Assembly (NCBI GenBank): GCA_041740355.1
Contig: JBGSMD010000069.1
Location: 1-27,238, forward strand
Direction: 5' to 3'
Origin: Bdellovibrionota bacterium
GTDB taxonomy: Bacteria > Bdellovibrionota_C > UBA2361 > CALJRW01
DNA: 27,238 bases
The position numbers and the translations under genes are program-made. Shown piece by piece: positions 430 through 27,238 of the stretch. Below the pieces are notes generated by a model. The model was not told where the DNA came from and did not search any database. It worked only from the letters and a program-made list of their open reading frames with translations. Position 1 is the first letter of the stretch. Each line of letters begins with the position of its first letter.

Positions 430-541
430 TTTGGACATGCTTTAAACCTAATTACTTTAGCCCTTAGCTGATAACCTAAGATTTGGTTAATTACTGGTTG
501 GCAAGCAGGTCTCTTACTTTAGCAATATTTTGGAGTTGTTT

Positions 542-841
542 ATGCAAAGTGGTGATGCTTCGGCCAGTAAAATGCCCCAGTGGGATGTAGCGTACTTAGA
601 TAATCTTGGTTACGACTCATTAACAGAATTAATGCGGGCGATTATTTTAAGATGTGTAGATGATTTTCATAATAAGGCAGAATTTAAATCAGAGGCCTTA
701 GCTTACATGGAAGATCAAGATGAAGATTACATTTTTTCATTTCGTTCGATTTGTCTACATCTTGGTTTAGATCCAAACAAGACAAAGAATGCCATAATTT
801 ATGCTAACCAAAGAATTAGCACCCGCCGACGTGCTGCCTAA
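542..841 (+). CDS. Small conserved hypothetical protein (LMRAII...FSFxSICxxLGLDP motif)
   Basis: ORF track gives 530..841, but ATG at 542 has GGAG(532-535) 6 nt upstream. The motif pattern resembles a widespread uncharacterised family (recollection). Terminator-like hairpin lies downstream. Confidence 0.8.
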   Translation: MQSGDASASKMPQWDVAYLDNLGYDSLTELMRAIILRCVDDFHNKAEFKSEALAYMEDQDEDYIFSFRSICLHLGLDPNKTKNAIIYANQRISTRRRAA

Positions 842-861
842 TGAATAATAATTCGCAGATT

Positions 862-1087
862 AAACGGTTAGAGTTTGAGTAGAGGTCGAATTAAAAAGTT
901 GGTAAAAACGCAGCTGTACTTTTGCTACAGCGAGTATTCTCAAACCAGTTAAATAAAATATTGGTTTATAACTTTTATCAGGTTTGAGTCGTAGTATGCC
1001 CAGTTGAAATGTAAACATTTCAACTTAAGCGACCCGCAAGGGTCGCTTAACTTTTTTCTTTCGAGATCTGCCAAAGGCTAAACGTTT
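862..1087 (+). repeat. Family B palindromic element, long copy with ~100 bp of nested hairpins
   Basis: Ends AAACGGTTAG/CTAAACGTTT (9/10 IR). 862-938 and ~1050-1087 align with the two halves of 1578-1699. The middle holds three extra hairpins. Confidence 0.9.
1025..1061 (+). terminator. Rho-independent terminator-like hairpin nested inside element B1
   Basis: TTAAGCGACCC-GCAA-GGGTCGCTTAA: perfect 11-bp stem with GNRA loop, followed by CTTTTTTCTTT, between two convergent genes. Confidence 0.75.
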
Positions 1088-1092
1088 GATAA

Positions 1093-1332
1093 TTATTGGA
1101 TAGTGGCAGAAGCCTGATCACTCGCTTCAATAATAGACATAATCCGATCTACTCCCTTAAGTTTTTTTGTTTTTAATTGTTTAACTTCTAGTTCTTCCTG
1201 AGGTGTTAAGAAGTTTCTTGCTTGAAAACGAGATAAGCGATCTTCTAACGCTTGATGCTCTTTATGCAATTTACTTAGCTCAAAATTATCAGCTAATAAA
1301 CTTAGTAGAATTTCCTTTTGCCTTTTATTCAT
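1093..1332 (-). CDS. DUF465/YdcH-family small coiled-coil protein
   Basis: L..EH..LE..L......LTP.EELE...LK.KKL...D.I pattern typical of DUF465. GGAG lies 9 nt upstream of the ATG at 1332. Confidence 0.85.
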   Translation of the reverse strand: MNKRQKEILLSLLADNFELSKLHKEHQALEDRLSRFQARNFLTPQEELEVKQLKTKKLKGVDRIMSIIEASDQASATIQ

Positions 1333-1577
1333 CAATCATTTCTCCGATAAAAATCCTGTTCCCAAACCTTGAATCTCAAAAAAGAAAGTTAGACCTTTAT
1401 CCTGACATCTTAATGCCAAATCTAATCAACAATTTTTGTGATTAATAAACAGGATCAATTTGTTATTTGTTTACGTCTAGGTAAAAGCTTAATTGATTTA
1501 CAGGTCTAAGTTCAAGCTAATTATCAAATCCTAAAATACCTATTCTAGAACTTAAAAGTGAAATAACCATATAATCA

Positions 1578-1699
1578 ATCGGTTTAGAGTTTGAGTGGAG
1601 GTCAAATTAAAAAAATTAGCAAAAACGCAGGTGTACTTTTAGTACAGCGAGTATTTTGCTTGTTTTTTTCTTTTGAGATCCGCCAAAGGCTAAACCGAT
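1578..1699 (+). repeat. Family B palindromic element, short 122-bp copy
   Basis: Perfect 10-bp ends ATCGGTTTAG/CTAAACCGAT. Folds as one long rod (GTGGA/TCCGC, TCAAA/TTTGA, A7/T7, AGCAAAA/TTTTGCT, TGTAC/GTACA). Confidence 0.92.
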
Positions 1700-1701
1700 A
1701 G

Positions 1702-2427
1702 CTAAATTAGCATTAAGCTTAAATTCCTACCCGACTCATTAGACTGTCGACGATACGATGAGAAATCTAAAGTACTAATTGTACAAATTTTACTCGAAAT
1801 TAGTTCAATCGAAAAAGAATTAATTTGCTTAGCGAGTGTTTCAAGCATGTTCAAATAATATTTCCCCTGCCGTTCTTGATAGACTGCATTTGGGCCAATT
1901 AAGTCTAATTCATTTTGCTTAAATTCGTAGCGTTCCTTACCGGCATGAGGTCCCACTAACAGCTGAAAATTTTTCACTCCTAGTTCTTTCATTCGTGCTA
2001 ATACTTTATTAGTAATTTCGATTTGTAGCCCCTGCCAACCACTATGAATCACAGCTACAACTTTTGGGCTATAAATTAAAATTGGCAGACAATCCGCAGT
2101 CATTATTCCTAATCCAATATTAGAAAATTTGGTAATATTTTTGATAATTAAAGCATCAGCTGGTTCCTTCCAGTCACTTAAGGTTGTTGTTGCTAATTCT
2201 TCTTGGCTAAATTCTAGGAAATGATCGGTATGATTTTGATTAAGTAGAATTAAATTAGCGACACCCTGTTCTTTAATAAATTGTTCGCGGGCATTTTGTC
2301 GATTCGCAAGATTGAAATTGTACTGCTGATTAAAGAAGGAATGCTTGATGCCTGCTTCGATCCAACGAGGGTAATAATAGAAGTTATTATTATATGCTAA
2401 ATCAATTAACTTTATATTTTTCGACAT
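1702..2427 (-). CDS. pgeF: PgeF/YfiH (polyphenol oxidase-like, FAMIN-family purine nucleoside phosphorylase)
   Basis: Motifs NQNH, ADAL, TADCLPIL, HSGWQG, ICT, FSSYRR, GRN. His-Cys-His triad present. Confidence 0.9.
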   Translation of the reverse strand: MSKNIKLIDLAYNNNFYYYPRWIEAGIKHSFFNQQYNFNLANRQNAREQFIKEQGVANLILLNQNHTDHFLEFSQEELATTTLSDWKEPADALIIKNITKFSNIGLGIMTADCLPILIYSPKVVAVIHSGWQGLQIEITNKVLARMKELGVKNFQLLVGPHAGKERYEFKQNELDLIGPNAVYQERQGKYYLNMLETLAKQINSFSIELISSKICTISTLDFSSYRRQSNESGRNLSLMLI

Positions 2428-3877
2428 ACCCGACTACTCTACCAAAGGCATCTACTTTTAACCAATCCCCATGATCCTCAATAACTAATAGTCGATCGCC
2501 ATAATAAAGAGGCATAACTTCTGCTTCAAAGGTACTTGGTTTAATATATAGGCTAGTATCTAGAACAACTCTAACTTGATAATTCTTAAACGTTGTAGGT
2601 TCAAGTTTCGCTTGACCTACTCTTTCATCAATAATTGGAGTCTTTCGTAAATGTTCATCCATCACATTATTCCCTTGAGTTTCAGGCTGATTCTCCTTAC
2701 TTGGTCTGACGGCATCCTCGGGAGTATAACCATCTAAAATATCTCTTAATTCCGCTGGTTCCACTGGACCAGTTAAATTTAAACCTTGCGGTTGGGTCAA
2801 GTCATCTAACGACTGCTTGGTATTGGAAGAACCTGAATCGGGATTTTCCAATTGATCCATAATTTTTGTAAGTGGGCTTTCGGCATTTGTCTTAGTAACT
2901 TCTGTAGTCTTTAGCACCATTCTCGGTTTTTCACGTATAAGCTCTAGCGACTCTTTTACAAAGTTTGGATCTGAAACTAAGCTAATTTGCCTTTCTCTAG
3001 GAGTATAAAAATAAATACTGGATATTAGCAGTGAGATAAAGAGCAACATTAAAATTATGGAGACTGGCTTATAACGCCTAATTGATTTTGAGCTACTCAC
3101 TTCCTGTTCGTAATCTTCAATTAATTCTGCTGGTAATTGCAGATCAGCAGTAATCAATTCTAAATTTTTATCAGTATTTAGTGAGTTTAGATATTTTTGA
3201 AATTCATCTAACTGAGATTCCTCTGGATCTACCTCAGCTCTTTGTGGGGTATCAATGAACTCAGGCACTTCAGGTAAAACAGAGTGCTTTTCTAAATGAA
3301 TAATAGTTTTTGGTATAAATGTTTCCAGCTTACTAGCCAATTCGGGATCGATCACTAAGCATTGTTCCAAGGCCAGTTTGCTTGTTGGAATAAGAATATT
3401 TGTTACTTCTAATCGTTTTTCTTCTGGTAAGTTTTGTAGTTCATCTTGCCAAATGCTGATTAATCCAAATCCAACTAAATCAGCTCTTAGAGTCTTAAGT
3501 TTTAAAGCAGAAAATGACCAATAAGATTTTGCCACAAAATTTGAAGGTTCTAAATTTATAGCCTCTTCAGAAAGCTCGGACAATCTAGTCCATTCCTTAT
3601 TCTTGAACGCCGATTCCATCGGAGATAATGGGATTTGTGGAATCTGCATAACTGGAATTATTTCTTCCAAGTGAACAACTTTTATAAGGTTCTCTTTAGT
3701 ACCCTCTCCGGCAAGAATATCTGTGGGAATAGAATTATTAGCCAAGTTCTCTTGATCCTCGTTGGCGGGAGTATTTACAACAAATTCGTGTAGATCATGT
3801 TTAGGATTTAGAAATCCATACTCAGGCAAGCTACCCTTTAAAATTTTATTTAGACCAATGTTGATTTGCTCATTCAT
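2402..3877 (-). CDS. Bitopic membrane protein with C-terminal SH3b-like domain, function unknown
   Basis: One TM segment (SIILMLLFISLLISSIYFY) preceded by basic RRYK. Low-complexity linker. C-terminus SLYIKPS...GDRLLVIEDHGDWLKV...GYV resembles bacterial SH3. Confidence 0.75.
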   Translation of the reverse strand: MNEQINIGLNKILKGSLPEYGFLNPKHDLHEFVVNTPANEDQENLANNSIPTDILAGEGTKENLIKVVHLEEIIPVMQIPQIPLSPMESAFKNKEWTRLSELSEEAINLEPSNFVAKSYWSFSALKLKTLRADLVGFGLISIWQDELQNLPEEKRLEVTNILIPTSKLALEQCLVIDPELASKLETFIPKTIIHLEKHSVLPEVPEFIDTPQRAEVDPEESQLDEFQKYLNSLNTDKNLELITADLQLPAELIEDYEQEVSSSKSIRRYKPVSIILMLLFISLLISSIYFYTPRERQISLVSDPNFVKESLELIREKPRMVLKTTEVTKTNAESPLTKIMDQLENPDSGSSNTKQSLDDLTQPQGLNLTGPVEPAELRDILDGYTPEDAVRPSKENQPETQGNNVMDEHLRKTPIIDERVGQAKLEPTTFKNYQVRVVLDTSLYIKPSTFEAEVMPLYYGDRLLVIEDHGDWLKVDAFGRVVGYVEKYKVN

Positions 3878-4249
3878 CTTTAAATTGTGCTTGGAAGTTA
3901 AAACCTAATTATTTAAGTAGTTTAGACGATTGTTCCGTAATTAAAGTTTCGATGTATCGATCAAAGTTCACACCTATTCTGGCCATTTCAATTAATGATC
4001 ATATAATAAGGTTATGTTGCTTCAGTGGCAACTTGGTATCTTCAGATAAAGAGTCCAAAAAACAACAAAGATAGTCAGCCTAACTAGAATTACGAAAAGG
4101 TTTTTTAGAAATTCATTCTTAGTTTTACTATATTTTATCTTGCCGTTTTTAAATATTCACATAAAATATAAAATATCCTTATATTACAACAGTTTGGAAA
4201 TTTTTTATTATTTGGTTTCAACTGCTTGGAATAACTTTTCATCAATATT

Positions 4250-4825
4250 ATGAAGATCTTATCACAATTACACTTAGTATTATTTTGTTTACTCAGTTCT
4301 TGTTCAACAAGCAATCTTTACCCTCCAGGAGTTAAACCAGAGGTTATTGCCTTAGCTGAGAGTAGCAATCGTGAAATAATCTTAAAAGTTACCAATTCTT
4401 TCCAATTAGACTCACTTGGTCATCAATACCTTGGAATTTTATTTCCAGCTGGTGAAATACGGCACGAATTCTTAGAACAAGCTCTACTTCAGAAACTTTA
4501 TACAGAGTTAACACTCCGAGGATTTCGACCAAGAATTGATTTAGAACGTACTCCTAACAATATTAAAATCGATCAGCTAAAAGTTGATTTAGCTAACGTC
4601 CAACTTACAGCTTATGATCTATTGATGACTCGAAAGGTCGTTTCTAAGGTAAAATTAAAAGCAGATTTTGATTCTCTAAGAATCAATGTTCCTATTTCCT
4701 ACACGATGAGTAGTGCCTACTCCGAGTATAAAACTATGCCTTTTAAGGCCCAGCTTCAGAGGATTCTTGATAAAAGCTTAGATGCGTCGATCAAGGACCT
4801 ATTAAACCAACTAAGAATTAAGTAA
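4250..4825 (+). CDS. Putative lipoprotein of unknown function
   Basis: Signal peptide with lipobox LSSC (Cys18). 191-aa ORF, first of three tightly spaced genes. Confidence 0.75.
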   Translation: MKILSQLHLVLFCLLSSCSTSNLYPPGVKPEVIALAESSNREIILKVTNSFQLDSLGHQYLGILFPAGEIRHEFLEQALLQKLYTELTLRGFRPRIDLERTPNNIKIDQLKVDLANVQLTAYDLLMTRKVVSKVKLKADFDSLRINVPISYTMSSAYSEYKTMPFKAQLQRILDKSLDASIKDLLNQLRIK

Positions 4826-4832
4826 AAAGATC

Positions 4833-5426
4833 TTGTCTCCTAAATACTTAGTTCTGCTTGTCGGGTTTTTTACTGAGGGTTTCTTAACGCTACTATGGTT
4901 CTTAGGAAAAGAATCGGCATTGATTACACCAACAAATAAGTATTATTCACTGATAGATTTTATATTATTAAGCTCTGCCTTAATACTGCCTTTATTAATT
5001 TTGAACTACTTATTGTTTATTCGATATCCGAATCAAACACGAAATGATTTTCTCCAAACTAAAGTTTATCCTTTGTGTCAAATACTAAATATCCCATCAG
5101 CCATCTTCATCTCCTTAATTGCCGGTATCGGTGAGGAATTATTCTTTAGAGATCTCCTCTTAAATTATCTTAATATTTCTCTAGGTCCATTCCTCGCAAT
5201 ATTGCTAAGTAGCTTAGCCTTTGCCCTTGTGCACTTTATTGGTCAAATTAAAAATTCCTTGCCATTAATCTTGATATACTTAGTAGTTGGTTTTTACTTT
5301 GCTTTCATCTACCTAATCACTCAATCAGTCCTAATCTGTATCACTATTCATTTTGCCTATGATCTAGTTGCAATTATGGCTTATAAATTTGCGTTAAAAC
5401 AAAAAAATAACTTTACCCCAGCGTAG
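4833..5426 (+). CDS. CPBP (CAAX/Abi) family intramembrane protease
   Basis: EELFFR, FALVH and HFAYD motifs in a multi-TM protein. TTG start. Confidence 0.92.
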   Translation: MSPKYLVLLVGFFTEGFLTLLWFLGKESALITPTNKYYSLIDFILLSSALILPLLILNYLLFIRYPNQTRNDFLQTKVYPLCQILNIPSAIFISLIAGIGEELFFRDLLLNYLNISLGPFLAILLSSLAFALVHFIGQIKNSLPLILIYLVVGFYFAFIYLITQSVLICITIHFAYDLVAIMAYKFALKQKNNFTPA

Positions 5427-5427
5427 C

Positions 5428-6018
5428 ATGACCAAACCATCAACTAACCCACATCAAATATTAACTAGCTTTAGTATTGATATGCCTGATTGGATCAAAG
5501 GATTTATAAGCAGCAAATCGAATTGCTGTTATTTAAGTGATCAGGACAAGATTAATCTTGTTTTGGACGCTCTAGAGATTCAAATTAAGATGGATACAGG
5601 CGGCCCTTTTGCGGCAATAGTATTTGATCCAAACGGTTGGATTATTTCAATAGGTGTAAATTTAGTTGTTCCTGAAAATAATTCCACAGCTCATGCTGAA
5701 ATGATTGCCTTACAACTAGCTCAAAAAACAATTGCTAATTTTTCTTTAAATTCCATTGGGAAATGTACTTTAGCGAGCTCTAGTCAGCCCTGCGCACAAT
5801 GCTGTGGCGCAGGTGTCTGGGCTGGAATCAGTAAACTACTAGTTGCTTGTTCCTCAAGTGATACAGAAGAAATATTAGGTTTTGATGAAGGTCCGATTCA
5901 CCCAAATTGGATCCAAGAATACGAACAACGAGGAATTACTGTGATTAAAGACCTAGAACGAGATAAAGCCTGCGATATAATCAAGAATTATCAGGGAATA
6001 ATTTATAACGGCAATTAA
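5428..6018 (+). CDS. Zn-dependent CDA-superfamily deaminase, NE0047-like (probable guanine deaminase)
   Basis: GGPFAA, HAE, PCAQC, plus GFDEGP and C-terminal IYN motifs that I recall from the Nitrosomonas NE0047 guanine deaminase subgroup. Confidence 0.85.
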   Translation: MTKPSTNPHQILTSFSIDMPDWIKGFISSKSNCCYLSDQDKINLVLDALEIQIKMDTGGPFAAIVFDPNGWIISIGVNLVVPENNSTAHAEMIALQLAQKTIANFSLNSIGKCTLASSSQPCAQCCGAGVWAGISKLLVACSSSDTEEILGFDEGPIHPNWIQEYEQRGITVIKDLERDKACDIIKNYQGIIYNGN

Positions 6019-6282
6019 TATAGTGAGTCCAAAAAATAAATTACTTTAAAAGACTAACGATTTTGCTTGGACTAAGTATCTATGTTGTTTTTAGCTATGC
6101 AAACTTGGATATCCGCCGTAGCTTTTGCTTTGGCGTGACAAAAATCCAAGATTTGCATTAGCCGTAATGACTCTGTTCAATTTACTAACCAGCCTTCGCT
6201 GAAGCTTCGGCTAGGCAGGCAGTAAATTATTTATTGTCATTACTAAATTACTAACCTGAATCCTTATGTCGAACTCAGGTTA
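6019..6282. repeat. Intergenic array of four abutting palindromic elements
   Basis: Element 1: 6019-6080 (TATAGTGAGTCCAA/TTGGACTAAGTATC). Element 2: 6094-6162 (GCTATGCAAACTTGGAT/ATCCAAGATTTGCATTAGC). Element 3: 6164-6243 (GTAATGAC/GTCATTAC with inner AATTTACT/AGTAAATT). Element 4: 6252-6282 (TAACCTGA/TCAGGTTA). Confidence 0.85.
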
Positions 6283-7122
6283 CTAGAAATAATTAACAAT
6301 ATTATTAATAATAGTTCTACCAACCAATGAACAATCTAGCTTTATCCCTCGCTTTAAGGCTTCTTTCTTTTCAAATGCTTGAGGATCTGTAAAATCAAAG
6401 ACCGAAACTTCTGGATGGGCCATCTGTCCAAAAATTCTTCCATTGCTACTTTTTAAACCAGCAATACCTAGCAATGATCCGTTGGGGTTATTTGGAAAAC
6501 GTTCCGTAGACTTTCCTGTGACCGGGTCAGCATATTCCAGTAAGACATGTTCACTGACAATTTTTTGCTTAATAGATTCTGAGACTGGATCGAAAGCGCT
6601 AAACTTATCACTAAATTGCAATTTACCTTCTCCATGACGACACCACAGATAAAAAACTTGATCTTCTAGCCCAGCAAAAGCAAAATGATTATTTTTTAAT
6701 TTGTGAGGGACATACGCAACACGATAACTACCACAGTCATTATGAGCAAGTGTTAAAGCCTGCTTTGTATAATTATTATCTGAGGCTGGCAGTAAGCCTG
6801 ATTTAACTAAAAGTTGGAATCCATTGCATTGTCCGTAAATTACGCCACCTTTATCGGCGAAATTCCAAAATGCCTCTGTTAAACCATTAATGTTTAATTG
6901 ATTAACTGCACACATTGCCGAACCTAGAAGATCCCCATGCATAAAACCACCAGCAATATTAATTATTTGATAGTTCTTTAGTAATTCTTTACGCTCTAGT
7001 AACTGATTAAAATGAATTAAATCTACCCTTGCCCCATTTTGAGTATAGGCTAGCTTACTTTCTTCGTGGCAACCAATACCAAGGCCATGAATAATTAAAA
7101 CTTTTACATTTTTAGAAGTCAT
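6283..7122 (-). CDS. purQ: FGAM synthase glutaminase subunit PurQ
   Basis: GGFMHGD, CNGFQLLVKSGLLP, HGEG, NPNGS and HPE give the Cys-His-Glu triad. Lies 2 nt downstream of purL. Confidence 0.96.
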   Translation of the reverse strand: MTSKNVKVLIIHGLGIGCHEESKLAYTQNGARVDLIHFNQLLERKELLKNYQIINIAGGFMHGDLLGSAMCAVNQLNINGLTEAFWNFADKGGVIYGQCNGFQLLVKSGLLPASDNNYTKQALTLAHNDCGSYRVAYVPHKLKNNHFAFAGLEDQVFYLWCRHGEGKLQFSDKFSAFDPVSESIKQKIVSEHVLLEYADPVTGKSTERFPNNPNGSLLGIAGLKSSNGRIFGQMAHPEVSVFDFTDPQAFEKKEALKRGIKLDCSLVGRTIINNIVNYF

Positions 7123-7124
7123 TT

Positions 7125-10100
7125 CTATTTAGCTCCAAAGTTATAAGTTTGATGATAAGACTCCTCTAACTTAGCTAAGTCCAATATCCAGCTTTGTTTT
7201 TTCGTAATAACCTCGAGTCCACTTTCTGTTACTTTACCGAGTGGAATTAAATGTTCCTTGGTAAATATTTTTTCCAATTTAGACTGATTGATTGGATTAA
7301 TACTAATCACAAAGCGACCTGGACGTTCAGAAAATAAAGTTTCACTTAGGGGCTGACTGATATTAGAAAGATTCAAATCCATTCCAAGCTCAGAAGACAC
7401 TAGCGATTTAAAAATTGAAGTTAAAAGTCCGCCAGAATGAACGTAAGCTGAAGATGCTAAGATATCCTCCTCAAAACAATTAGCTAATTTTTCAGCGATA
7501 AACTTAAAGGCATCAGTAGTGATTGGCGAGTAAGAACCAACATTGTTCTCTTGATTGCGATTGTTTAGAACTTCTTCCCAAGCACTTCCAGCAAAACCTT
7601 TGGCATCATCAACTTGAACCAAATAAACTAAATCTCCAGCATATTTAAAACTAGCATTTTGACATTTACGATAGTCCTGAATCTTTACAGCACCCGAAAT
7701 TAAATAAGTCGCTGGATCATGGATTTCAATTTTTTTATTACCATTATCTAAAGCTTTAATCTTTATTTGTTTTCGAAGGTTGTATGGGACTTGTTGCAAG
7801 TCAAAACTATTGTCCACTTCATAAGTACAAGAGCACTTCATACTATCTTTACCAGAGATAATAGGAATATTAAATTCTTGAACAAGCTCAGCTACGGCAA
7901 TTCCTTCCCGAACAAGATCCGCACAGTTTTTCAGGCCACTTTCTTTGTCCATTGTATAATCTGAATCGGAGTTTGGCTGACAGTAGTTTCCACATACTGC
8001 CCAGGCATCCCAACTAGCTTTGTTAAGATCAGGAAGTACCCCACCGATGGCAATAATTTTTCCTAATAGATCGTAGTAAGACTTTTGAACCGAATAATAA
8101 GGATCCAGATCTGCTAATTTAGGAGCAGCGGCCATAGCATAAGCGAGTGCTCCGTAGTCTCGATCAATTGTATCCAGTGGCTTTTGTAATGTCGCGTCAG
8201 AATCAACATTTAATTTCTTACCAAATAGTGGCGCAATTATTGTACCTCCCTTAACTGAGAAATCTTTTTGACGAAAAAACCACTCCTTGGAAGCAACGTC
8301 TGGATGAGCTAAAACTTCTGCTAAATCAGTATTTAAATCTGTAATATCTGAATCGACATTAGTATTTTGTTTAGCAGGTATGTGCCATTTCCCTTTAAGA
8401 ACCTTTCTTGGTTCGGAAGAGAACAGATAATCTATCTGAAACAGGCCAACTAATTTATCTTGATACTTAAGTTGAATTAAATTGTTATTTTCTAAGTGAC
8501 CAACATTAGATAATTCAATCTCATAAAAACTGGCTAACTCTTTAATTTTTTCCAAATTTCTTGGATGGCTTACTAGTAACATTCGATCTTGAGTTTCGGA
8601 GCAGTTAATCTGCCATGGTTGTATACCTTGATACTTAACTGGATGCTTAGCTAAGTCCATCACGAGACCATTGGTACTTCTTGCAATCTCATGGCTAGCA
8701 GAACCTAAGCCCATAGCTCCTAAGTCTGTTACTGCTGTAAATAGTCCTTGCCGTGAGGCATCTAAAATAAACTCCTTAACTTTTACTTGAATAAATGAGA
8801 AGTCAGCCTGAACGTGACCTAGGCTAATTTCGCTACTAGCCGATAAGGAACTCTCCGTAGCTCCATGAATACCATCGATTCCAACTGCCTGACCGGCAAT
8901 TAATACTTGATCACCCGGACTAGGTTCTTTAGTTCGATAATCATAACCGGTGACAGACTTAACTGGTGACCAACCAACGGCTCCGGCATAAACTAAACAC
9001 TTAGCAATATATCTGGGATCACTAAAGACCAAACCATTCAGTGTTGGAATTTGCATTTCGTTACCAGCTTCCCGAATTCCTCGAGTAATTCCCTTTAGAA
9101 TTAAATATGGATGTTTAACACCTTTGGGAAGCCATCCTTGATAATTTGGATTTCCAGTGCAATAACAAAAGAATCCCATCAAGATATCAAATGTTCCCTG
9201 CATTGTGCCCATAATGTCACGAAAGTTTCCGTTTAGACCAGTCTTCGCACCTTGCACTGGTTCAATGTTAGAAGGAGAGTTATGGGTTTCAACTTTCAGG
9301 CAATACATATAGTCCTGATCGTAATAGACGACACCAGAATTATCGGAGAACATACTTGAAATCCAGTTACAACCTCTAGCCGTAAGTCGATCGTTAACAG
9401 CAAAGGCCGGGTCTTTAATGAATGTTTTAAACATACCGCGCTCAAGTACTAATTGATTATCAACTTCTTTTAACCAGCCTTGATTAATTGCATTTTGAAA
9501 AACAGAATCAACTTCCACATCTAAAATAATCCGAGCGTTAAACTCCTTATGAAAACAATGCTCTGATCTCAAGCCAAACCAAGTTTCTAATTCTACATCA
9601 GTAGCTTTGGAAGTTAATCCAAGTTTGGTTCGGAGCTCTACAAATTCTGGATTTTTATAGACTGACTGAAAATATTTCAGCTCTTCAATTGTAGCAGCCA
9701 GTTTTCTTTCCGAATTAAGTTCTAGTAATTGTTCATCTGAAAAATTGGCAATTGCTAATTCTTGAACTTCCATTTTTGTCTGAAGTTCTACTACTGGTAA
9801 AAGAACGTTTTTCCCTGAATAAAACTCCGCACTAGTAATTATCTGACTTTCGTAAAGTTCTGGATTAAATAAGAATTTACTTACACTTAACTTCTGCTCA
9901 GCCGTTAAACTTCCTTGCAAATAGTAACTTGTAATTAGAAAGCCCTGTTCCTTTCCTGTTAAATTAATCTTGGCTGCTGCAAAAGCTTGTTCTAAAGCAG
10001 TCATCCCTTCAGCGTCGCTAGTGCCAGGTTTTAATCCTGCTTGGATTAAAAAATTAAATTCTAATTTTTGTTTAGTCTTTAGAGCTAAGCTAGTATTGTA

Positions 10101-10334
10101 ACTACAACTATTAAGCGCCGGGTCTAAGAAAGGCTTGCTAGAGGCTAGATTTGATAAATCCACTTTTCTTTCGTGAACAAAACAATATGTTTTGCTCATA
10201 AGAATTCCAGTTAAATCTAAATGTAAAAAACGATTAACTTCCTTTGTCAAATTACTTTCATTAGAAAATCCAACTTCAAAAAAAGAAACCTGAAAGTGAT
10301 TATTTGTTGTTAATAGATAACTTATTCCTGACAT
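7125..10334 (-). CDS. purL: FGAM synthase subunit PurL with N-terminal PurS-like extension
   Basis: SEHC.HK, DNSGV, KVETHNSPS, DGIHGAT.SS, D.GA.GL, SETQDRM, ISGKDSM and LFSE motifs. N-terminal KPG..D.EG is PurS-like. Confidence 0.96.
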   Translation of the reverse strand: MSGISYLLTTNNHFQVSFFEVGFSNESNLTKEVNRFLHLDLTGILMSKTYCFVHERKVDLSNLASSKPFLDPALNSCSYNTSLALKTKQKLEFNFLIQAGLKPGTSDAEGMTALEQAFAAAKINLTGKEQGFLITSYYLQGSLTAEQKLSVSKFLFNPELYESQIITSAEFYSGKNVLLPVVELQTKMEVQELAIANFSDEQLLELNSERKLAATIEELKYFQSVYKNPEFVELRTKLGLTSKATDVELETWFGLRSEHCFHKEFNARIILDVEVDSVFQNAINQGWLKEVDNQLVLERGMFKTFIKDPAFAVNDRLTARGCNWISSMFSDNSGVVYYDQDYMYCLKVETHNSPSNIEPVQGAKTGLNGNFRDIMGTMQGTFDILMGFFCYCTGNPNYQGWLPKGVKHPYLILKGITRGIREAGNEMQIPTLNGLVFSDPRYIAKCLVYAGAVGWSPVKSVTGYDYRTKEPSPGDQVLIAGQAVGIDGIHGATESSLSASSEISLGHVQADFSFIQVKVKEFILDASRQGLFTAVTDLGAMGLGSASHEIARSTNGLVMDLAKHPVKYQGIQPWQINCSETQDRMLLVSHPRNLEKIKELASFYEIELSNVGHLENNNLIQLKYQDKLVGLFQIDYLFSSEPRKVLKGKWHIPAKQNTNVDSDITDLNTDLAEVLAHPDVASKEWFFRQKDFSVKGGTIIAPLFGKKLNVDSDATLQKPLDTIDRDYGALAYAMAAAPKLADLDPYYSVQKSYYDLLGKIIAIGGVLPDLNKASWDAWAVCGNYCQPNSDSDYTMDKESGLKNCADLVREGIAVAELVQEFNIPIISGKDSMKCSCTYEVDNSFDLQQVPYNLRKQIKIKALDNGNKKIEIHDPATYLISGAVKIQDYRKCQNASFKYAGDLVYLVQVDDAKGFAGSAWEEVLNNRNQENNVGSYSPITTDAFKFIAEKLANCFEEDILASSAYVHSGGLLTSIFKSLVSSELGMDLNLSNISQPLSETLFSERPGRFVISINPINQSKLEKIFTKEHLIPLGKVTESGLEVITKKQSWILDLAKLEESYHQTYNFGAK

Positions 10335-10382
10335 AATGGAAGCCTGTAATGAGATGCAAAAAACTCTTATTTTCTATTAATT

Positions 10383-10410
10383 AGTATAGATTACCATACA
10401 AAAATATCAA
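10383..10410 (-). promoter_or_regulatory. Putative sigma70 promoter for purL-purQ
   Basis: Minus strand TTGATA-16 bp-TATACT, 48 nt upstream of the purL ATG. Confidence 0.5.
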
Positions 10411-10473
10411 GTCAGGCGTCTCGATAATACAGTTATGGAAGAATAAACCTATTGGCGAGGATGTCTAATGCAC

Positions 10474-10554
10474 ATATACTAAAACCCATTAAGTTTTATC
10501 AAATAGCTTGGTGAAATGTATGTTGTATTTTCCGCAGATCGAGTTTTAGTATAT
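10474..10554. repeat. 81-bp element with perfect 12-bp terminal inverted repeats (MITE-like)
   Basis: ATATACTAAAAC(10474-10485)/GTTTTAGTATAT(10543-10554). Confidence 0.65.
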
Positions 10555-10697
10555 TTCGTTTCTACAGCTGAATACTTATCTATTAAGCATTTCAGCCGAT
10601 GTGACCTCTAAGGTCCCATCAGGCGACTAATTTTAAAACTGTAATTTTAATTGACGCTTAGTAAATATTAGATGGAACGTCTTAATTTTAAATTTTA

Positions 10698-12221
10698 ATG
10701 TCTAAGCTACTCCTGCTACTTTCATATCTTGCTGTCTTTCTTTACTCTCTATATTTTTGGGAGCGGCCAATCTTCGATCCTGATTTAGGTTGGCATTTAG
10801 CAGGTGGCAAATGGATTTCTGGTCAAATTGCACTAGCTTGGGAACAGAACCAACTCTCTTCGGCAATGCTGATCCCACCCTTTGATTTTATCAATTCTCG
10901 CCAAGAATATTGGCACGACTATCATTGGCTCATTCAAATTGTAATGTATCAAATTTATAAGCATTACAGTTACCTAGAATTAATTTGTTTCTATTCAGTA
11001 ATTTTTAGTTTAACTTGCTTGATCATTTTTAAAATTGCTCTCCGGATTGCAAGAGAGAGAAAGCTTTCCATAATCTATCCTCTAATAGGAACCCTAGCGG
11101 CCAGCTATTTATTAAAAGATGTTTCATCTGTTCGTCCACAACTTATTTCGTTTCTGTTCATTGCAATAACAGCAAATTTATTATTACAGCCTGCGCGAAA
11201 ATTTGAAGGTCTAATATTATTTTTTCTTGCAGTAATTTTAGTTAATATTCATGTCTATTGGATTTTTATTCCTTTTTTATATTTTTGCTATCGAATTATC
11301 CCAAATTTACTTAAGAAAAAGCCAAAAGAAATAATAGCAAATAACCTTTTTACATTATTATTAATTTTGCTTGCGGGATTTATCTCTCCCTACGGAATCT
11401 TTAGTCCTTCCCAATCATTTGCAGACTACTTTCGCAATTATTATTTAATTATAGAGTATCTACAAACAGATGTTTATCTAAAAAAATTAATTACCGAGTT
11501 TCTTGGTGCATTCAGAGCTTGGTCACCAACGACTTTTATCTGTATAGCTTATCTTATTTGTTTGGCACGTTTTCTTAATAAAGAGGAAATTTTTAGGAAC
11601 TTAGGCTTACATTTTGCTGGAGCAATTAGTTTTTATCTAGTGTTGGAATCGGTTAAATTTTCAAGTATTTTTGCAATACTTGCACTTGTTTCATGGATTA
11701 GTATTATTCCCAAGGTTAATTTCTTATCTAACCAAAAATTATTTATTCCTATCCTCTTAGCCTTAAATTTAAGCTTAACCGTCGGTGTAATTTCAAGGCT
11801 TCAAAGTAAGGAAAAGATTGCCCTCGATATTGAATTATTTACACCGATGGTAGCTTGTTCCAAGCTAGCTACACTAAATTTACCGCCAAAAAAATATCAA
11901 GTTTTGACCGAATTTACTCATGGTGGGTGGTGTTATTGGGCAATATTTAGTCAGGGAGTAAATAATTTTCAAGTAACCACAGATGGTCGCACTCAAGGTG
12001 TTCCAATAGAAGATTATAAGAAATCAACTCAAATTTATACCGTCAAAGAAGGTTGGAATAAAACAATCATTGATTGGAATCCAGATTTTATTCTGGCATC
12101 TAGAGAAACATCACTGGCACATGTAATGCCGTTTTTTAAAACAGAGTGGAGTAATCTGACGATTGATCGAAGCTTTGCAATGTACATAAATAATAAATTG
12201 CTACCCTCAAATACAGAATAA
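10698..12221 (+). CDS. Polytopic membrane protein, probable GT-C-fold glycosyltransferase
   Basis: About 10 or more TM segments. DPDLGWHL after TM1, W.D..WL, RPQL, NIH and C-terminal GG...W and DGR motifs, as in a common uncharacterised GT-C-like family. Confidence 0.7.
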   Translation: MSKLLLLLSYLAVFLYSLYFWERPIFDPDLGWHLAGGKWISGQIALAWEQNQLSSAMLIPPFDFINSRQEYWHDYHWLIQIVMYQIYKHYSYLELICFYSVIFSLTCLIIFKIALRIARERKLSIIYPLIGTLAASYLLKDVSSVRPQLISFLFIAITANLLLQPARKFEGLILFFLAVILVNIHVYWIFIPFLYFCYRIIPNLLKKKPKEIIANNLFTLLLILLAGFISPYGIFSPSQSFADYFRNYYLIIEYLQTDVYLKKLITEFLGAFRAWSPTTFICIAYLICLARFLNKEEIFRNLGLHFAGAISFYLVLESVKFSSIFAILALVSWISIIPKVNFLSNQKLFIPILLALNLSLTVGVISRLQSKEKIALDIELFTPMVACSKLATLNLPPKKYQVLTEFTHGGWCYWAIFSQGVNNFQVTTDGRTQGVPIEDYKKSTQIYTVKEGWNKTIIDWNPDFILASRETSLAHVMPFFKTEWSNLTIDRSFAMYINNKLLPSNTE

Positions 12222-14441: not shown

Positions 14442-14951
14442 CTAAAATTTAACTCCTGACTTATTTAGCCGGACTAAAACCTCACTTGTTAAGTCTAAGT
14501 CTTCAGATACATATAAAACTACCTGTGGAGTTTTCTCTAAAATCATTGGGGATTTCTTTTCCTTAGCAAGAGTTTCTAAGATCTTACGAACCTCTGCAAT
14601 GATCTTTGTAACTTTATCGTTATTATCCTTAGTGTAAGCTTGTTGGTAATCTTGAAAAGCCTTGGTCGCAGCTTGCTCTTCCTCACGATAACTAACAATC
14701 TTTTTTTGCATAGCTTCTTGCGAAAGAACAGCAGATTGTTGCTTAATCTCTCCTTGCAGAGCCTGAAGTTTATCTCTTTGTTTCTCTAAGCTTTTCTTTG
14801 TTCCTGAAAATTTACCTTCAAGAGCTTTCTTAGCCGACTTTCCGGCATCAGACTCAGAAATAACACGTTCAACATCAACAACGTAAATGTCTGCAGCTAG
14901 TGCAAAATTACTTATTACTAATGTTAAAACTAAGAAAAGAAATTTAATCAT
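14442..14951 (-). CDS. skp: Periplasmic chaperone Skp/OmpH
   Basis: Signal peptide, I.VVDV.RV...S..GK, long coiled coil, DLT..V. Downstream of bamA, with RBS AAGGA. Confidence 0.93.
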   Translation of the reverse strand: MIKFLFLVLTLVISNFALAADIYVVDVERVISESDAGKSAKKALEGKFSGTKKSLEKQRDKLQALQGEIKQQSAVLSQEAMQKKIVSYREEEQAATKAFQDYQQAYTKDNNDKVTKIIAEVRKILETLAKEKKSPMILEKTPQVVLYVSEDLDLTSEVLVRLNKSGVKF

Positions 14952-14984: not shown

Positions 14985-15104
14985 TATAGCTATTTTTTGC
15001 AAGATTATCAATTCTCCCCTTTTGGGATGTCAAACTGATTACAAATAATCGTCTCTGACTTTTTGTATCCCAAAAGGTGAGAACTTCGCAAGCTTGAATA
15101 ACTA
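14985..15104. repeat. Rod-like palindromic element between bamA and skp
   Basis: TTCTCCCCTTTTGGGAT(15012-15028)/ATCCCAAAAGGTGAGAA(15067-15083), 16/17 complementary. Inner GTCA/TGAC and GATTA/TAATC. Outer TAGCTATT/AATAACTA. Confidence 0.8.
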
Positions 15105-15143: not shown

Positions 15144-17417
15144 TTAATTTAGAGCTCCTCCAAAAGAAAATAGCGTAACTAAACTGCTTTCATCATCTTC
15201 AGCATCAAGTGGATGTCCAAAAGCAATGTTTAAAGGTCCAAGTGGTGAAATCCATCTAAATCCAACACCGACAGATTGACGTAGTTCTCCTACTTCAATA
15301 CTTTCTTCGTCATCAAAGGCTTCCCCCATATCGAAGAATACTAATCCTCTAAGATTTGCAGAACTAACTAGTGGGAAAATGACTTCTAGGTTATTAACTA
15401 ACTGCTTACTACCACCGTATTCATTGCCATTTTCATCTTCTGGTCCAAGAGTTCTTTCTCTAAAACCACGGACTGAGTTTATTCCACCAGGAAAATATCT
15501 TTTGAATAATGGGAACGGATCGTCTGTATTAGAATCTCCGTAACCAACATTAATTCTCCATGAGAAAACAATCTTATCAAACTCTGTATCCATCAAAGGA
15601 GTAAAGAATTCATTTCCAACTTCAAGCACATAATAATCTTCGCTACCACCAAGACCCGCAGTTTCAAAAGAAAGTGTTTGACGAGCTCCTTCTGTCGGGT
15701 TCATTGGATTATCAATGGTATTGCGTACTAGTTTTGGTGTGATACTTGAAGCAGTACTTTTTCCCACAGAATCTATAACCAATGGTGCCGCGTCATTTAC
15801 ATCTACATTATCAATTTCAATATTCACATATTCATATTTTGTGGAGAAATTAATATCCTCCGACCAGGAGGCAAACACTTCTTCTAAGGGATATCCAACT
15901 GTCACAGCACCTCCTGAGGTATTACGATCAAAATCGCTAAAATCTAATTCTCGCTTAAAGGCTTGAACACCACCTCTCCAATAAGTGTCAGCTATTCTAG
16001 GATCGTCCAAAGAAACATACAGGTTTTCACTTTTTTGACCGATATCAGCATTGGCTACGAAGCGTCGCCCCGTTCCCATAAAATTATTTTCAGTTAAACG
16101 TGTATTAAATAGTGCTCCATCAGAGCTGGAAAAACCACCTCCAATACTAAAAGATCCTGTGGAGCCTTCTTTCACGTTAACATTCAAATCGACTTCGTCA
16201 TCTTTGCCAGGAATATTTTCTGGCGTAATCGTTGCTTCTTCAAAATAACCAGTTCGCTTTAATAAAGCTTCACTGCGGTTTACTTTAGTTTTATTATATA
16301 ATTGTTGTTCTTGAACCTTGACCTCACGTCTAATTACATTATCGTAAGTTTTATTATTACCAGTAATTCTAATTTCATTAACTTTAACTGGACGTCCTTT
16401 GCTAGTATTAAATACAAGGTCAACAGATTTATCTTCAATATTAACGTTACTTTCCGGAGTAACGTTAGCAAAGGCGTAACCAAAATCACCAAACTTGTCA
16501 CTAAGGGCTAAAGACTCATTTCTAATTTTAGTGGTGTTAAAGATTTCTCCGGTCTCCAGTTTTAATGCTTCTCGTGTTTTTTCAACCGAGTTTTCAAGCA
16601 AATCACCTTTGACAGTATAATTACCAAGTTTAAATTGATCCCCTTCGTTCACTCGAAAAACAACTTTTAGTTTATTGCCCTCACGGGTGACTTCAGCATC
16701 ATTAACCTGGGCATTAATATAACCCTGATCAAGCATTCCTTGCAGTACTACGGTCCGATCTGTTTCCAGATATGCTTTATTTAAGCGACCAGATCCAGTT
16801 AACCAAGAACTAAGCCATTTATATTTAGTGCTTTGTAGCTTATCTAGGATGGGATCAAGTTTAACGTCATCTGTTTTTGTGACTATCTCAATTGATTTAA
16901 CTTTAAATTTCTGACCTTCATCAATTTTAAAGGTTAAGTCATATTTTCCACCTTCAACTTGTTCTGATTCAACAGCCACTTTGGCATCCAAGTAACCTAA
17001 AGTTTGATAATAAAGCTCAGTAGCTTGACTTAATCGTTTAGTTAGCAAGGGATCATAGTTCTTTTGATCCTTCAGATTAATAACCTTGGAAATATCTGAG
17101 CTGTCAGCAGCTTTATTACCGGTAATAAAGACTTTATTAATCCTTGGATACTCTGTGACTTTAAAAGTTAAGACGGCAGAAGTATAATCTACGACTACCT
17201 TATCAATCCCACCAACAGCGTACAGCTTTTTAAGTGAAGCATTAACTTCCTCACTGGTAATTTTTCCAGGCTTAAGGGCAACGGCCTCTTCAGCTTGTTT
17301 CTTGGAAACATTTTGTAGTCCTTCGATCTTAACTTGGGACACAGAATATGTTTCTGCCCAAATCTGTAAAGGACAAAACAACAAGCATATAAAGAAATAA
17401 ATTTTATTAATTTTCAT
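15144..17417 (-). CDS. bamA: Outer membrane protein assembly factor BamA
   Basis: Signal peptide, POTRA repeats (GN.KT.D.VIRRE, GYF), GGINSVRGF loop 6 motif, W.SPLGPL. Confidence 0.98.
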   Translation of the reverse strand: MKINKIYFFICLLFCPLQIWAETYSVSQVKIEGLQNVSKKQAEEAVALKPGKITSEEVNASLKKLYAVGGIDKVVVDYTSAVLTFKVTEYPRINKVFITGNKAADSSDISKVINLKDQKNYDPLLTKRLSQATELYYQTLGYLDAKVAVESEQVEGGKYDLTFKIDEGQKFKVKSIEIVTKTDDVKLDPILDKLQSTKYKWLSSWLTGSGRLNKAYLETDRTVVLQGMLDQGYINAQVNDAEVTREGNKLKVVFRVNEGDQFKLGNYTVKGDLLENSVEKTREALKLETGEIFNTTKIRNESLALSDKFGDFGYAFANVTPESNVNIEDKSVDLVFNTSKGRPVKVNEIRITGNNKTYDNVIRREVKVQEQQLYNKTKVNRSEALLKRTGYFEEATITPENIPGKDDEVDLNVNVKEGSTGSFSIGGGFSSSDGALFNTRLTENNFMGTGRRFVANADIGQKSENLYVSLDDPRIADTYWRGGVQAFKRELDFSDFDRNTSGGAVTVGYPLEEVFASWSEDINFSTKYEYVNIEIDNVDVNDAAPLVIDSVGKSTASSITPKLVRNTIDNPMNPTEGARQTLSFETAGLGGSEDYYVLEVGNEFFTPLMDTEFDKIVFSWRINVGYGDSNTDDPFPLFKRYFPGGINSVRGFRERTLGPEDENGNEYGGSKQLVNNLEVIFPLVSSANLRGLVFFDMGEAFDDEESIEVGELRQSVGVGFRWISPLGPLNIAFGHPLDAEDDESSLVTLFSFGGALN

Positions 17418-24667: not shown

Positions 24668-26377
24668 ATGAATGTTTTAATTTCCAGGCCAGATAAAATC
24701 GGTGATGTAATCCTAGCTTTACATGCGGCAAAACAGTTAAAAGCTCATCTCCCGGAAGCTAATATCTACATGCACATCGCTGATTATACTAAGAAACTTG
24801 TTGAAAATGTCAGTTTCTTAGCTGGAGTTGTAACTACCGAAGATCCACTAAGTTCTGGAGACTTTGATGTAGTTGTCGATTTAATGGCTAAGTATAAGCA
24901 TGCCTCTAAGTTTTACAATTCTAATATAAAACGCCGGATTGGTAATTCCGCTCGGATCCATTCCCTACTTTACACGACAAGCCGTTATATTCGTAGATCC
25001 AAAGCCTTGATGAATGAGGCGGAATATAATTGGCAATTAGTTTGTTTAGTTGAACCACAACTTCGATATTCTCCGTTAGTTGAGTCACTAAACTTAAATG
25101 ATTTTAAGGAAGTAGTAGAATATCAAGAGTTTGATGACTTCATGGTCTTAATGCCCAGTGTGACTGTATCTGCTATCGGTTGGAGTTTGGAAAATTGGTT
25201 AATTTGTGGAAAAACTTTGAGTCGAAGATTTCCTGAAAAGAAAATTATCTTTTTACTTGGACCAGCTGAAAGTAAATTGGAAGAAGAAATCATTCTAAAG
25301 AATCATGGTCAAGAAAATATCTTAGTCCGAAAATTTGGTAATTTTCCTGAACTATTGGGATTTCTTGCTAAAGCAAGTTTCTACATCGGAACTTCAACGG
25401 GAGTTACTCACTTAGCAGGGGTTGCAGGTTGTGAAGGAATTGCACTTTATCCTGAAAAACTTTCCATGCACCCACGTCGCTGGGTTCCATTTAATAGCAA
25501 ATTACAAGTTATCTCCCTCGATCGTAAACCTTCTCCTGAGGTCGTAGCAAATGCTTGCTTTCAAACAATTCCCGATGAACTAAACCCACTACTTCGAAAA
25601 AAACTTTCTGCTTTTATCATTTGTTGTGACGAAGAAAGAAATATTGAAAGAGCCTTAAAAAGTATTGCTTGGTGCGATGAAATTGTTGTTGTTGATAGTG
25701 GTTCCAAAGATCGAACCTTGGATATTGCCAAACAATTTACTGCTAACATCCATCACCGAGATTGGACAGGAAACAGAGATCAAAAACAATTTGCTCTAGA
25801 TCAGTGTACTAACTCTTGGGTCTTAAATATTGACTCCGATGAAGAAGTTTCCATGGTCTTACGTTCACAATTAATTGAAATTCTAACGCGTAAGAAACCA
25901 AATGCTCAAGCTTATAATATTTCCCGTTTAATTTTCTACTTTGATCGTTGGTGGGATAAAGGTGGTTGGTATCCTGAGTATCGCTTAAGATTCTTCCAAA
26001 AGGAATATATTGAATGGGGGGGGAATGATCCCCACGAGAAGGCCCTAACAAAGGGGAAAATTAAGAAACTTGATGGTCATATCTTTCATTACACATATAA
26101 AAATGTGGAACATCAGATTGCCAGTTTGCAAAAACATGCCTTAATGATGGCTAGATCACTTTATAAAGATGGAAAACCATTTCGATTGTATAATGTTATT
26201 TTAAACCCAATTTTTCGTTTTTTTAAGTTCTACATCTTAAAAAAGGGTTATCGCGAAGGACTAGTTGGTCTTTTTGTCGCTATCCTAGAAAGTTACTACA
26301 CTTTTTTAAAATACCTAGTTTTTTGGGAACTGAAACAATGTCGTAACCTAGAAAAAAGAAAGAAAGATAATAAATGA
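24668..26377 (+). CDS. Fused GT9 (heptosyltransferase-like) + GT2 (WaaE/KdtX-like) glycosyltransferase
   Basis: N-terminal half: RPDKIGDVIL and STGVTHLA (GT9). C-terminal half: DEERNI..AL, VVDSGSKDRT, IDSDE, W.PEYRLRFF, GYREGLVG (GT2, WaaE-like). Confidence 0.92.
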   Translation: MNVLISRPDKIGDVILALHAAKQLKAHLPEANIYMHIADYTKKLVENVSFLAGVVTTEDPLSSGDFDVVVDLMAKYKHASKFYNSNIKRRIGNSARIHSLLYTTSRYIRRSKALMNEAEYNWQLVCLVEPQLRYSPLVESLNLNDFKEVVEYQEFDDFMVLMPSVTVSAIGWSLENWLICGKTLSRRFPEKKIIFLLGPAESKLEEEIILKNHGQENILVRKFGNFPELLGFLAKASFYIGTSTGVTHLAGVAGCEGIALYPEKLSMHPRRWVPFNSKLQVISLDRKPSPEVVANACFQTIPDELNPLLRKKLSAFIICCDEERNIERALKSIAWCDEIVVVDSGSKDRTLDIAKQFTANIHHRDWTGNRDQKQFALDQCTNSWVLNIDSDEEVSMVLRSQLIEILTRKKPNAQAYNISRLIFYFDRWWDKGGWYPEYRLRFFQKEYIEWGGNDPHEKALTKGKIKKLDGHIFHYTYKNVEHQIASLQKHALMMARSLYKDGKPFRLYNVILNPIFRFFKFYILKKGYREGLVGLFVAILESYYTFLKYLVFWELKQCRNLEKRKKDNK

Positions 26378-27099: not shown

Positions 27100-27238
27100 T
27101 ATAGTAAGTCCAGAAAGTAATTTCCAATAGGAATTACTTTCTGGGGCTTACTATCCCCCGGAGGGATAATAAAAACATATAGTTATGACAAAAATCACAA
27201 AACTAACTTTTGAATATTCGGAAATTAGTTTTTGTCAT
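27100..27238 (+). repeat. Family A palindromic element, copy 3 (3' end truncated by window edge)
   Basis: ATAGTAAGTCCAGAAAGTAATT(27101-27122)/AATTACTTTCTGGGGCTTACTAT(27132-27154). TATCCCCCGGAGGGATA identical to copy 1. Module 2 ATGACAAAAA...TTTTTGTCAT. Confidence 0.93.

Follow-up and report, generated by a model that had tools for sequence, protein, structure and literature searches.

At this locus two closely similar stretches of intergenic DNA lie on either side of a small DUF465 gene, which raises the question of what they are, whether they have moved, and by what means. We refer to them as B1 and B2, the two copies of family B in the window, i.e., the whole stretch of 27,238 nt that was analysed. 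Coordinates are collected in Table 1.

Table 1. Features of the family B locus (window positions).
Feature	Positions	Strand	Remarks
103-aa ORF	530-841	+	no Pfam family; end 20 nt before B1
B1	861-1088	+	family B copy with nested insert; left end TA, right end TG
B1 left arm	862-903	+	
B1 apical core	904-938	+	A-run, CGCAG, 6-7 bp stem-loop, CGAG, TATT
Insert in B1	about 939-1049 (~110 nt)	+	three hairpins (~939-988, 1002-1025, 1026-1049)
B1 right arm	1050-1087	+	
DUF465 gene	1093-1335	-	bystander between B1 and B2
B2	1577-1700	+	intact 124-bp rod; left end AA, right end TA
B2 apical core	1621-1655	+	
Cu-oxidase_4 (PF02578) gene	1702-2427	-	transcript would enter B2 antisense to the folding strand

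Two rods beside a DUF465 gene

B1 and B2 have the same orientation. They share their arms and an apical motif, as a sequence-only reading of this DNA had claimed: left arm plus core form a common block of 72 nt (87.5% identical, E 3e-13), and the right arms agree over 32 nt (94%). The paired changes listed in that reading are all present in the sequence, with A-T against G-C at alignment columns 27/216, G-C against A-T at columns 34/209, and three changed pairs at the termini (columns 9/233, 10/232 and 11/231). The fold of B1 has an energy of -76.9 kcal/mol (z -7.26) and that of B2 -52.1 kcal/mol (z -8.25); none of 200 dinucleotide shuffles was as good in either case.

Other parts of the description need to be adjusted. 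B2 is the plain rod that had been described for both copies, but B1 carries a three-hairpin insert. The insert stands in place of the first part of the right lower stem, and thus the apical loop of B1 is not closed as it is in B2. The GTAC-loop-GTAC arrangement is likewise found in B2, whereas the 3' side in B1 reads CTAC. The ends of the elements, previously placed at 862-1087 and 1578-1699, are likely to lie one base further out, where 10 of the 12 bases from three copies (the third is described below) agree with TA...TA. The B1 core has a 3x2 internal loop, two potential G-A pairs and a bulged A, and scores 33.9 bits (E 7e-6) with a core covariance model from whose training set B1 was absent. 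Cores of family B have a GC content of 30-33%. The third hairpin of the insert is GC-rich and followed by a T-run, making it terminator-like on the + strand.

B1 lies between the convergent ORF at 530-841 and the DUF465 gene, 4-5 nt from the stop codon of the latter. B2 starts 1-2 nt past the stop codon of the Cu-oxidase_4 gene, which we take to be pgeF/YfiH. BLAST and the covariance model identified no copy beyond B1 and B2 in the window, and Rfam covariance models gave no match over B at E values up to 5. At 26.2 bits, the DUF465 protein is only just above the Pfam cut-off of 25 bits. Its gene has a genome-typical GC of 0.33, and two of three candidate relatives matched it, at 95% and 72% identity, as is seen for housekeeping genes. 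The other long ORFs of the window, presumably including purL and lpxI, are taken to be housekeeping genes. The ORF at 530-841 has Atlas look-alikes at 0.93-0.94 in unnamed clusters, one of them mostly viral, with a recognition score just under the reliable range. A single 569-aa ORF at 24668-26377 combines a Glyco_transf_9 with a Glycos_transf_2 domain.

A second repeat family, A, occurs in the window at 1-138, 233-380, 6019-6245 and 27100-27238, and gave no match to the B core model. Its copies end in TATAG-type sequences, vary in their internal hairpins and contain ATGAC/GTCAT, a motif described for RPE-4, -6 and -7 (PMC3767692). Both ends of the window lie inside family A copies, which suggests assembly breaks. 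A strong intergenic hairpin at 15000-15080, between the genes at 14442-14951 and 15144-17417, is unrelated to B (11.9 bits).

A third copy and a core shared across phyla

We identified a third family B copy of 124 bp in another genome (locus L057). Its arms are the same, and it lies between sdhA and sdhB on the sense strand of these genes. Window genes from 530 to 12,200 had no match in this 10-kb locus. The genome gave one exact pattern match only, and any orthologues of B1 and B2 there are therefore absent or diverged. With the structure taken from the L057 copy, 8 of 50 pairs show a two-sided change over the three copies, compared with 3.3 in shuffles, of which 1 in 500 was as high.

The third copy bears on whether B1 and B2 serve the gene between them, either as the borders of a mobile cassette or as regulatory RNAs of the locus. 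The direct orientation around one small gene, the terminator-like hairpin in B1, and a locus (L040) with two cores around one small ORF speak for such a role. The L057 copy, however, is at an unrelated locus, where its strand with respect to the adjoining genes is the opposite one, the DUF465 gene has genome-typical GC and relatives at identities like those of housekeeping genes, no duplication surrounds the B1-B2 pair, and GTT precedes AAC at the ends, the reverse of attC. A role tied to DUF465 is thus highly improbable, and a composite element around this gene was rejected. We propose instead that B1 and B2 arose by separate insertions, each behind one of two adjacent genes, and that B1 was later disabled by the nested hairpins, which may now act as a terminator.

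The apical motif extends well beyond family B. A pattern scan of GTDB for N-CGSAG-[stem-loop]-YGAG-N'-AT, drawn so that 5-bp stems and C-G/G-C variants fell outside it, returned 81 stretches (three overlapping others, four at loci without a phylum) in 41 genomes from 8 named phyla, genomes within a lineage not being independent in these counts. The spread of the motif thus goes far beyond a single lineage. Up to 10 core loci occur per genome, and Lacrimispora saccharolytica An817 has 5. The other pattern matches carry the same core on unrelated, lineage-specific rods of ~140-185 bp. Across 36 chosen core sequences without B1 (30 pattern matches and six from other searches), two-sided changes occur in 10 of 15 pairs, with a covariation score, which ignores relatedness, of 0.464 against 0.142 when shuffled and at most 0.089 in slid controls; ~21 core positions are fixed by the search pattern. 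With the core covariance model, 84 sources gave 94 matches at E up to 1; five of these cores were new, B1 being one. BLAST, rather than the pattern, found plasmid cores in Martelella, Variovorax, Mitsuaria, Ensifer, Diaphorobacter and Comamonas, in which the loop is kept, the stems differ, and a C-G or G-C pair lies beneath the loop. What is invariant is the 3x2 loop with C-G closing pairs, two possible G-A pairs and a bulged A below.

The sequence-only reading was to be given up if no further copies were found or if the CGCAG/GAG loop varied among them; further copies were found, and the loop is conserved in them. Its broader claim of a dispersed, structured mobile element is upheld by the copy at an unrelated locus, the many further cores, and target duplications in related families, and we consider B very probably a mobile repeat.

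Rfam models gave no match over the cores in 15 of the 81 loci at the gathering score. A K-turn or loop E was rejected for the apical loop, as their consensus is absent and the pair below the loop varies. In the literature searched, which stopped short of the original RPE and ERIC papers, there was no description of a core shared across phyla; MITE catalogues (e.g., PMC11602168, supplement) may list these families.

Five copies are interrupted within about one base of the 3' edge of GAG-N'-AT, where inserts or breaks start in the window (939) and at L079 (~5000, - strand), L060 (5035), L013 (6660) and L050 (1530). Inserts in Sal-1 entries lie at the same edge. Interrupted copies at L086, L016, L018, L072, L031 and L009 are broken elsewhere. 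This edge is possibly a nicking or insertion hotspot, with the proviso that the search pattern hides breaks inside the core.

One-strand folding, target sites and the search for an enzyme

The sequence-only reading had taken a G-T wobble as favouring a fold of the + strand. This strand does fold better than the - strand with both RNA and DNA parameters, and arm mismatches point the same way. Outside the core, purine-purine mismatches outnumber pyrimidine-pyrimidine ones on the core strand by 250 to 25 (purine direction in 39 of 40 genomes, none against), and G-T exceeds A-C by 132 to 65. These counts compare left with right arms under mismatch-neutral scores, use one copy per genome in 40 genomes with four cores left out (B1 among them), and overstate independence because related families share internal loops. 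The core strand is the more stable in 39 of 41 elements with DNA and in 40 of 41 with RNA parameters, compared with 16 and 18 of 41 for flank controls.

Transcription and replication were rejected as the source of this bias. Orientation relative to neighbouring genes is even (-- 22, +- 17, ++ 15, -+ 15 and 12 undetermined among the 81 loci), as is flank GC skew (positive in 31 and negative in 34 of 65). The bias is therefore a property of the cycle of the element itself, like that of attC. Sites of the attC type, which are recognised as folded single-stranded DNA, show the same G-T and purine skew (PMC5027507). The skew itself is compatible with DNA or RNA alike.

Spread through RNA would account for one-strand folding and random orientation together. 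Read-through transcripts would fold, be cut at the base of the rod and be reinserted by a target-primed reverse transcriptase in the manner of SINEs, with the apical loop as an RNA-binding site. G-U and G-A pairs are RNA-like, copies begin a few bases past stop codons, and co-transcription followed by processing is on record for ERIC and NEMIS (PMC2229807). Nevertheless, duplication and element lengths are fixed within families, neither truncation series nor tails were seen, no reverse transcriptase was identified among 148 neighbouring ORFs and no Rfam family matched, and we regard this route as quite unlikely.

Copies occur within conserved operons, namely rplN-rplX (L030), sdhA-sdhB (L057) and dapA/dapB (L068), and the genes adjoining copies are unrelated. 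The copy between rplN and rplX (L030 4950-5150) is degenerate. In six families, T-N-A stands on both sides of 26 of 27 copies (one near-duplicate pair included, two copies skipped), the middle bases being identical in 20 and complementary in 2; the permutation p is 6e-5 when pooled and 0.12-1.0 within single 3-bp families. Identical 6-mers flank 6 of 13 Desulfobacterales-type copies (p 0.0012; 2 skipped). Duplications of 4 bp of the CTAG type are not significant (4 of 9, p 0.24, with 3 skipped; 2 of 4, p 0.5). Element ends were set by eye for all duplication tests. Family B, with three copies only, has exact TA/TA flanks in one. Element length is fixed within families (143, 159-160 and 181 bp). 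Full-length elements of distant phyla (Lachnospiraceae, Burkholderiales, Saprospirales) cluster at 156-160 bp between ends, which suggests a length constraint.

The ends of B could also be drawn further in, such that the element proper is limited to the stretch enclosed by the inner TA dinucleotides of its arms and was inserted at the centre of short palindromes, with the three terminal "compensatory" pairs belonging to the target. Three two-sided changes do crowd the outer pairs of just three copies, some related families start with GAG right after T-N-A, and YPAL inserts at dyad-symmetric sites (PMC2229807). The outer TA...TA nonetheless fits 10 of 12 bases, and Bacteriovoracaceae subfamilies with clear duplications also have two-sided changes near the ends but inside the element. 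This placement of the ends is very unlikely.

No transposase, integrase or reverse transcriptase family was identified by Pfam among the 148 ORFs nearest to the cores (cut to 500 aa). Among the collected loci, seven rows of solo ends were obtained, and the one examined (L058) lies between two ORFs that by eye are unlike transposases. Neither B2 nor the L057 copy had a real match in PLSDB plasmids or phages, and elements L019, L020, L035, L059 and L087 had none, or chance matches only, in plasmids, phages or E. coli. Plasmid and phage matches of L069, L017 and L086 are further non-autonomous copies, and no mobilising gene was found in the plasmid or phage matches. One such copy lies ~180 nt from an IS66. 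A Vibrio match (H10) was dismissed as chance, and L060, where a core is followed by an ORF, was rejected as an autonomous element, the ORF encoding DUF4143. In a Bacteriovoracaceae bin (L012, L022 and L060), three copies adjoin AAA_14/DUF4143 genes and two adjoin HNH genes.

Going by target rules (TA, T-N-A, CTAG), the families might be ordinary double-stranded MITEs, each derived from the ends of its own IS of the IS5, IS630 or IS1182 type and moved by that transposase; the common tip would be a passenger handed down with the element, or else the site of a host factor, and arm-to-arm conversion would maintain the pairing. Family-specific ends and duplication lengths agree with this, RUP and IS630-Spn1 provide a precedent (PMC2229807), and one core-less derivative retains both ends (L068 3891-3963, a Lachnospiraceae element with the whole tip deleted). 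Recognition of double-stranded ends does not explain, however, why mismatches in unrelated arms are biased to one strand or why the tip outdoes the ends in conservation. The terminal three pairs of B differ among all three copies, and neither the 148 nearest ORFs nor the collected loci yielded a matching IS. We consider this explanation unlikely.

Known repeats and a candidate mechanism

Measured against the bacterial MITE as described in PMC2229807, family B is <200 bp, non-coding and A+T-rich, forms a long stem-loop with terminal inverted repeats, and is dispersed (two copies in the window and one at the unrelated L057 locus). TA termini fit 10 of 12 bases and are exact in one of three copies, with significant duplications only in related families. 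Cognate IS ends were not found in the collected loci, plasmids or phages.

The resemblance to Rickettsia palindromic elements that had been suggested holds for RPE-5, on published sequences. RPE-5 (Rickettsia conorii, 115 bp) has the same apical motif on its reverse strand, with CGCAG or CGGAG, a stem-loop and TGAG, and an A-T, C-G or G-C pair below, by eye in ~17 of the first 41 entries of PMC2267715. Like B, it is of similar size, folds as a rod, is intergenic and has a TA-type end. Unlike B, it has a 5-bp rather than 6-7-bp apical stem, by eye different arms, and another host. The arms of RPE-4 (48 entries) and RPE-5 (41 entries) are by eye unlike those of B in the entries taken from PMC2267715. 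RPEs are hosted by Rickettsiales whereas B is not, the nearest named LpxA relatives (53-59%) being labelled Dadabacteria, Deltaproteobacteria, Bdellovibrionota, SAR324 and Oligoflexia, which indicates a host from an uncultured lineage resembling deltaproteobacteria. Sal-1 of Salmonella Typhimurium (PMC2267715) has the same core with a 5-bp stem, and small hairpins are inserted just 3' of GAG, as in B1. The arms of Sal-1 are unrelated to those of B and GC-rich.

A likeness to the RPE-1 core had also been put forward, and we retain it only as an assumption. RPE-1 elements are in-frame coding palindromes, whereas B1, B2 and the L057 copy have at least one stop in every one of the six frames, and no in-frame insertion was seen. 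An ORF of 141-247 aa spans 3 of the 81 cores (candidate ORFs only). Plasmid pRM gave no match below E 0.35 with the core model.

The repeat between rpsB and tsf in E. coli (L082) is presumably ERIC. ERIC/IRU/RU-1 share with B a rod of ~125 bp, TA-type ends and an intergenic location. In the one E. coli copy compared, ERIC has an AAGGC/AACGCA sub-apical loop in common with many related families, whereas family B has no AAGGC loop, and the ERIC apex reads GAG-stem-loop-TGAC rather than CGSAG...GAG, with no match to the core model even with filters off. A related core gave no match to E. coli. At L013 5100-5220, ERIC-like arms are joined to a B-type core, a possible link between the types. In the few YPAL/RU-2 entries compared the core is absent.

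Retention of structure over sequence, with a folding bias to one strand from G-T pairs and purine skew, is also a property of attC sites (PMC5027507). These have conserved ends and occur in cassette arrays, whereas in B the tip is conserved, the order of GTT and AAC is reversed, and relatives have target duplications. Membership in attC was rejected, since the RYYYAAC...GTTRRRY ends do not occur (GTT precedes AAC) and Pfam identified no integrase among the 14 window ORFs scanned. REP/REPIN elements, with RAYT or TIRYT, are likewise small structured repeats moved in trans (PMC3733652). B has no GTAG or CGTC tag, is a much longer single rod, and has duplications in related families; REP/REPIN was also rejected, the neighbours including no tyrosine transposase (0 of 148). 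We conclude that B is neither an RPE nor an ERIC by membership, that it resembles RPE-5 in its working, and that it is a new family of already known MITE-like palindromic elements.

The best overall reading, to which we give somewhat more than an even chance, is a non-autonomous MITE-like element of the RPE-5/Sal-1 type that is mobilised in trans. The copies present an apparently TA-bounded rod of ~124 bp at unrelated intergenic sites, with arms that keep pairing rather than sequence. Judging from related families, a staggered cut at T...A-bounded targets would insert copies and leave a short duplication of family-specific length. The statistics on mismatches and stability suggest that the selected form is one folded single strand reading CGSAG and then GAG. 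As neither neighbouring transcription nor GC skew goes with the strand bias, this would most simply be single-stranded DNA released during mobilisation. The mobilising enzyme, or a host cofactor acting in trans, may bind at the apical 3x2 loop, and this would account for a tip kept across phyla on rods whose ends vary. A single-stranded DNA fold with a protein-bound tip is, in our estimate, slightly favoured by the balance of probability. Known DDE transposases work on ends that are double-stranded, and HUH enzymes are not known to leave a duplication; thus no known enzyme fits one-strand folding plus target duplication.

A wider possibility, which we put forward tentatively and think doubtful, is that B, RPE-5, Sal-1 and dozens of unnamed repeats from at least 8 phyla form one unrecognised superfamily that is recognised by structure, with the G-A loop of the tip as its universal feature. 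If so, one widespread enzyme or host factor would bind the tip and join any rod-closing ends to T...A-bounded targets. This would be a route of transposition that combines attC-like strand recognition with target duplication, and it would explain the movement of RPE- and ERIC-like repeats without a matching IS.

By themselves, the two copies in the window are ordinary repeat insertions. The finding gains its weight from the cross-phylum tip together with the one-strand bias, and these point to a folded single-stranded substrate and an enzyme. Mobilisation of such repeats by transposases is described in a 2008 review as without experimental support (PMC2229807), and MITE cores of different bacteria have, according to a 2011 review, no common sequence or structure motif (PMC3184786). 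The tip motif provides a defined bait for pull-down and a genomic marker for a co-occurrence search for the enzyme, and one core model could annotate many unnamed repeats in genome bins.
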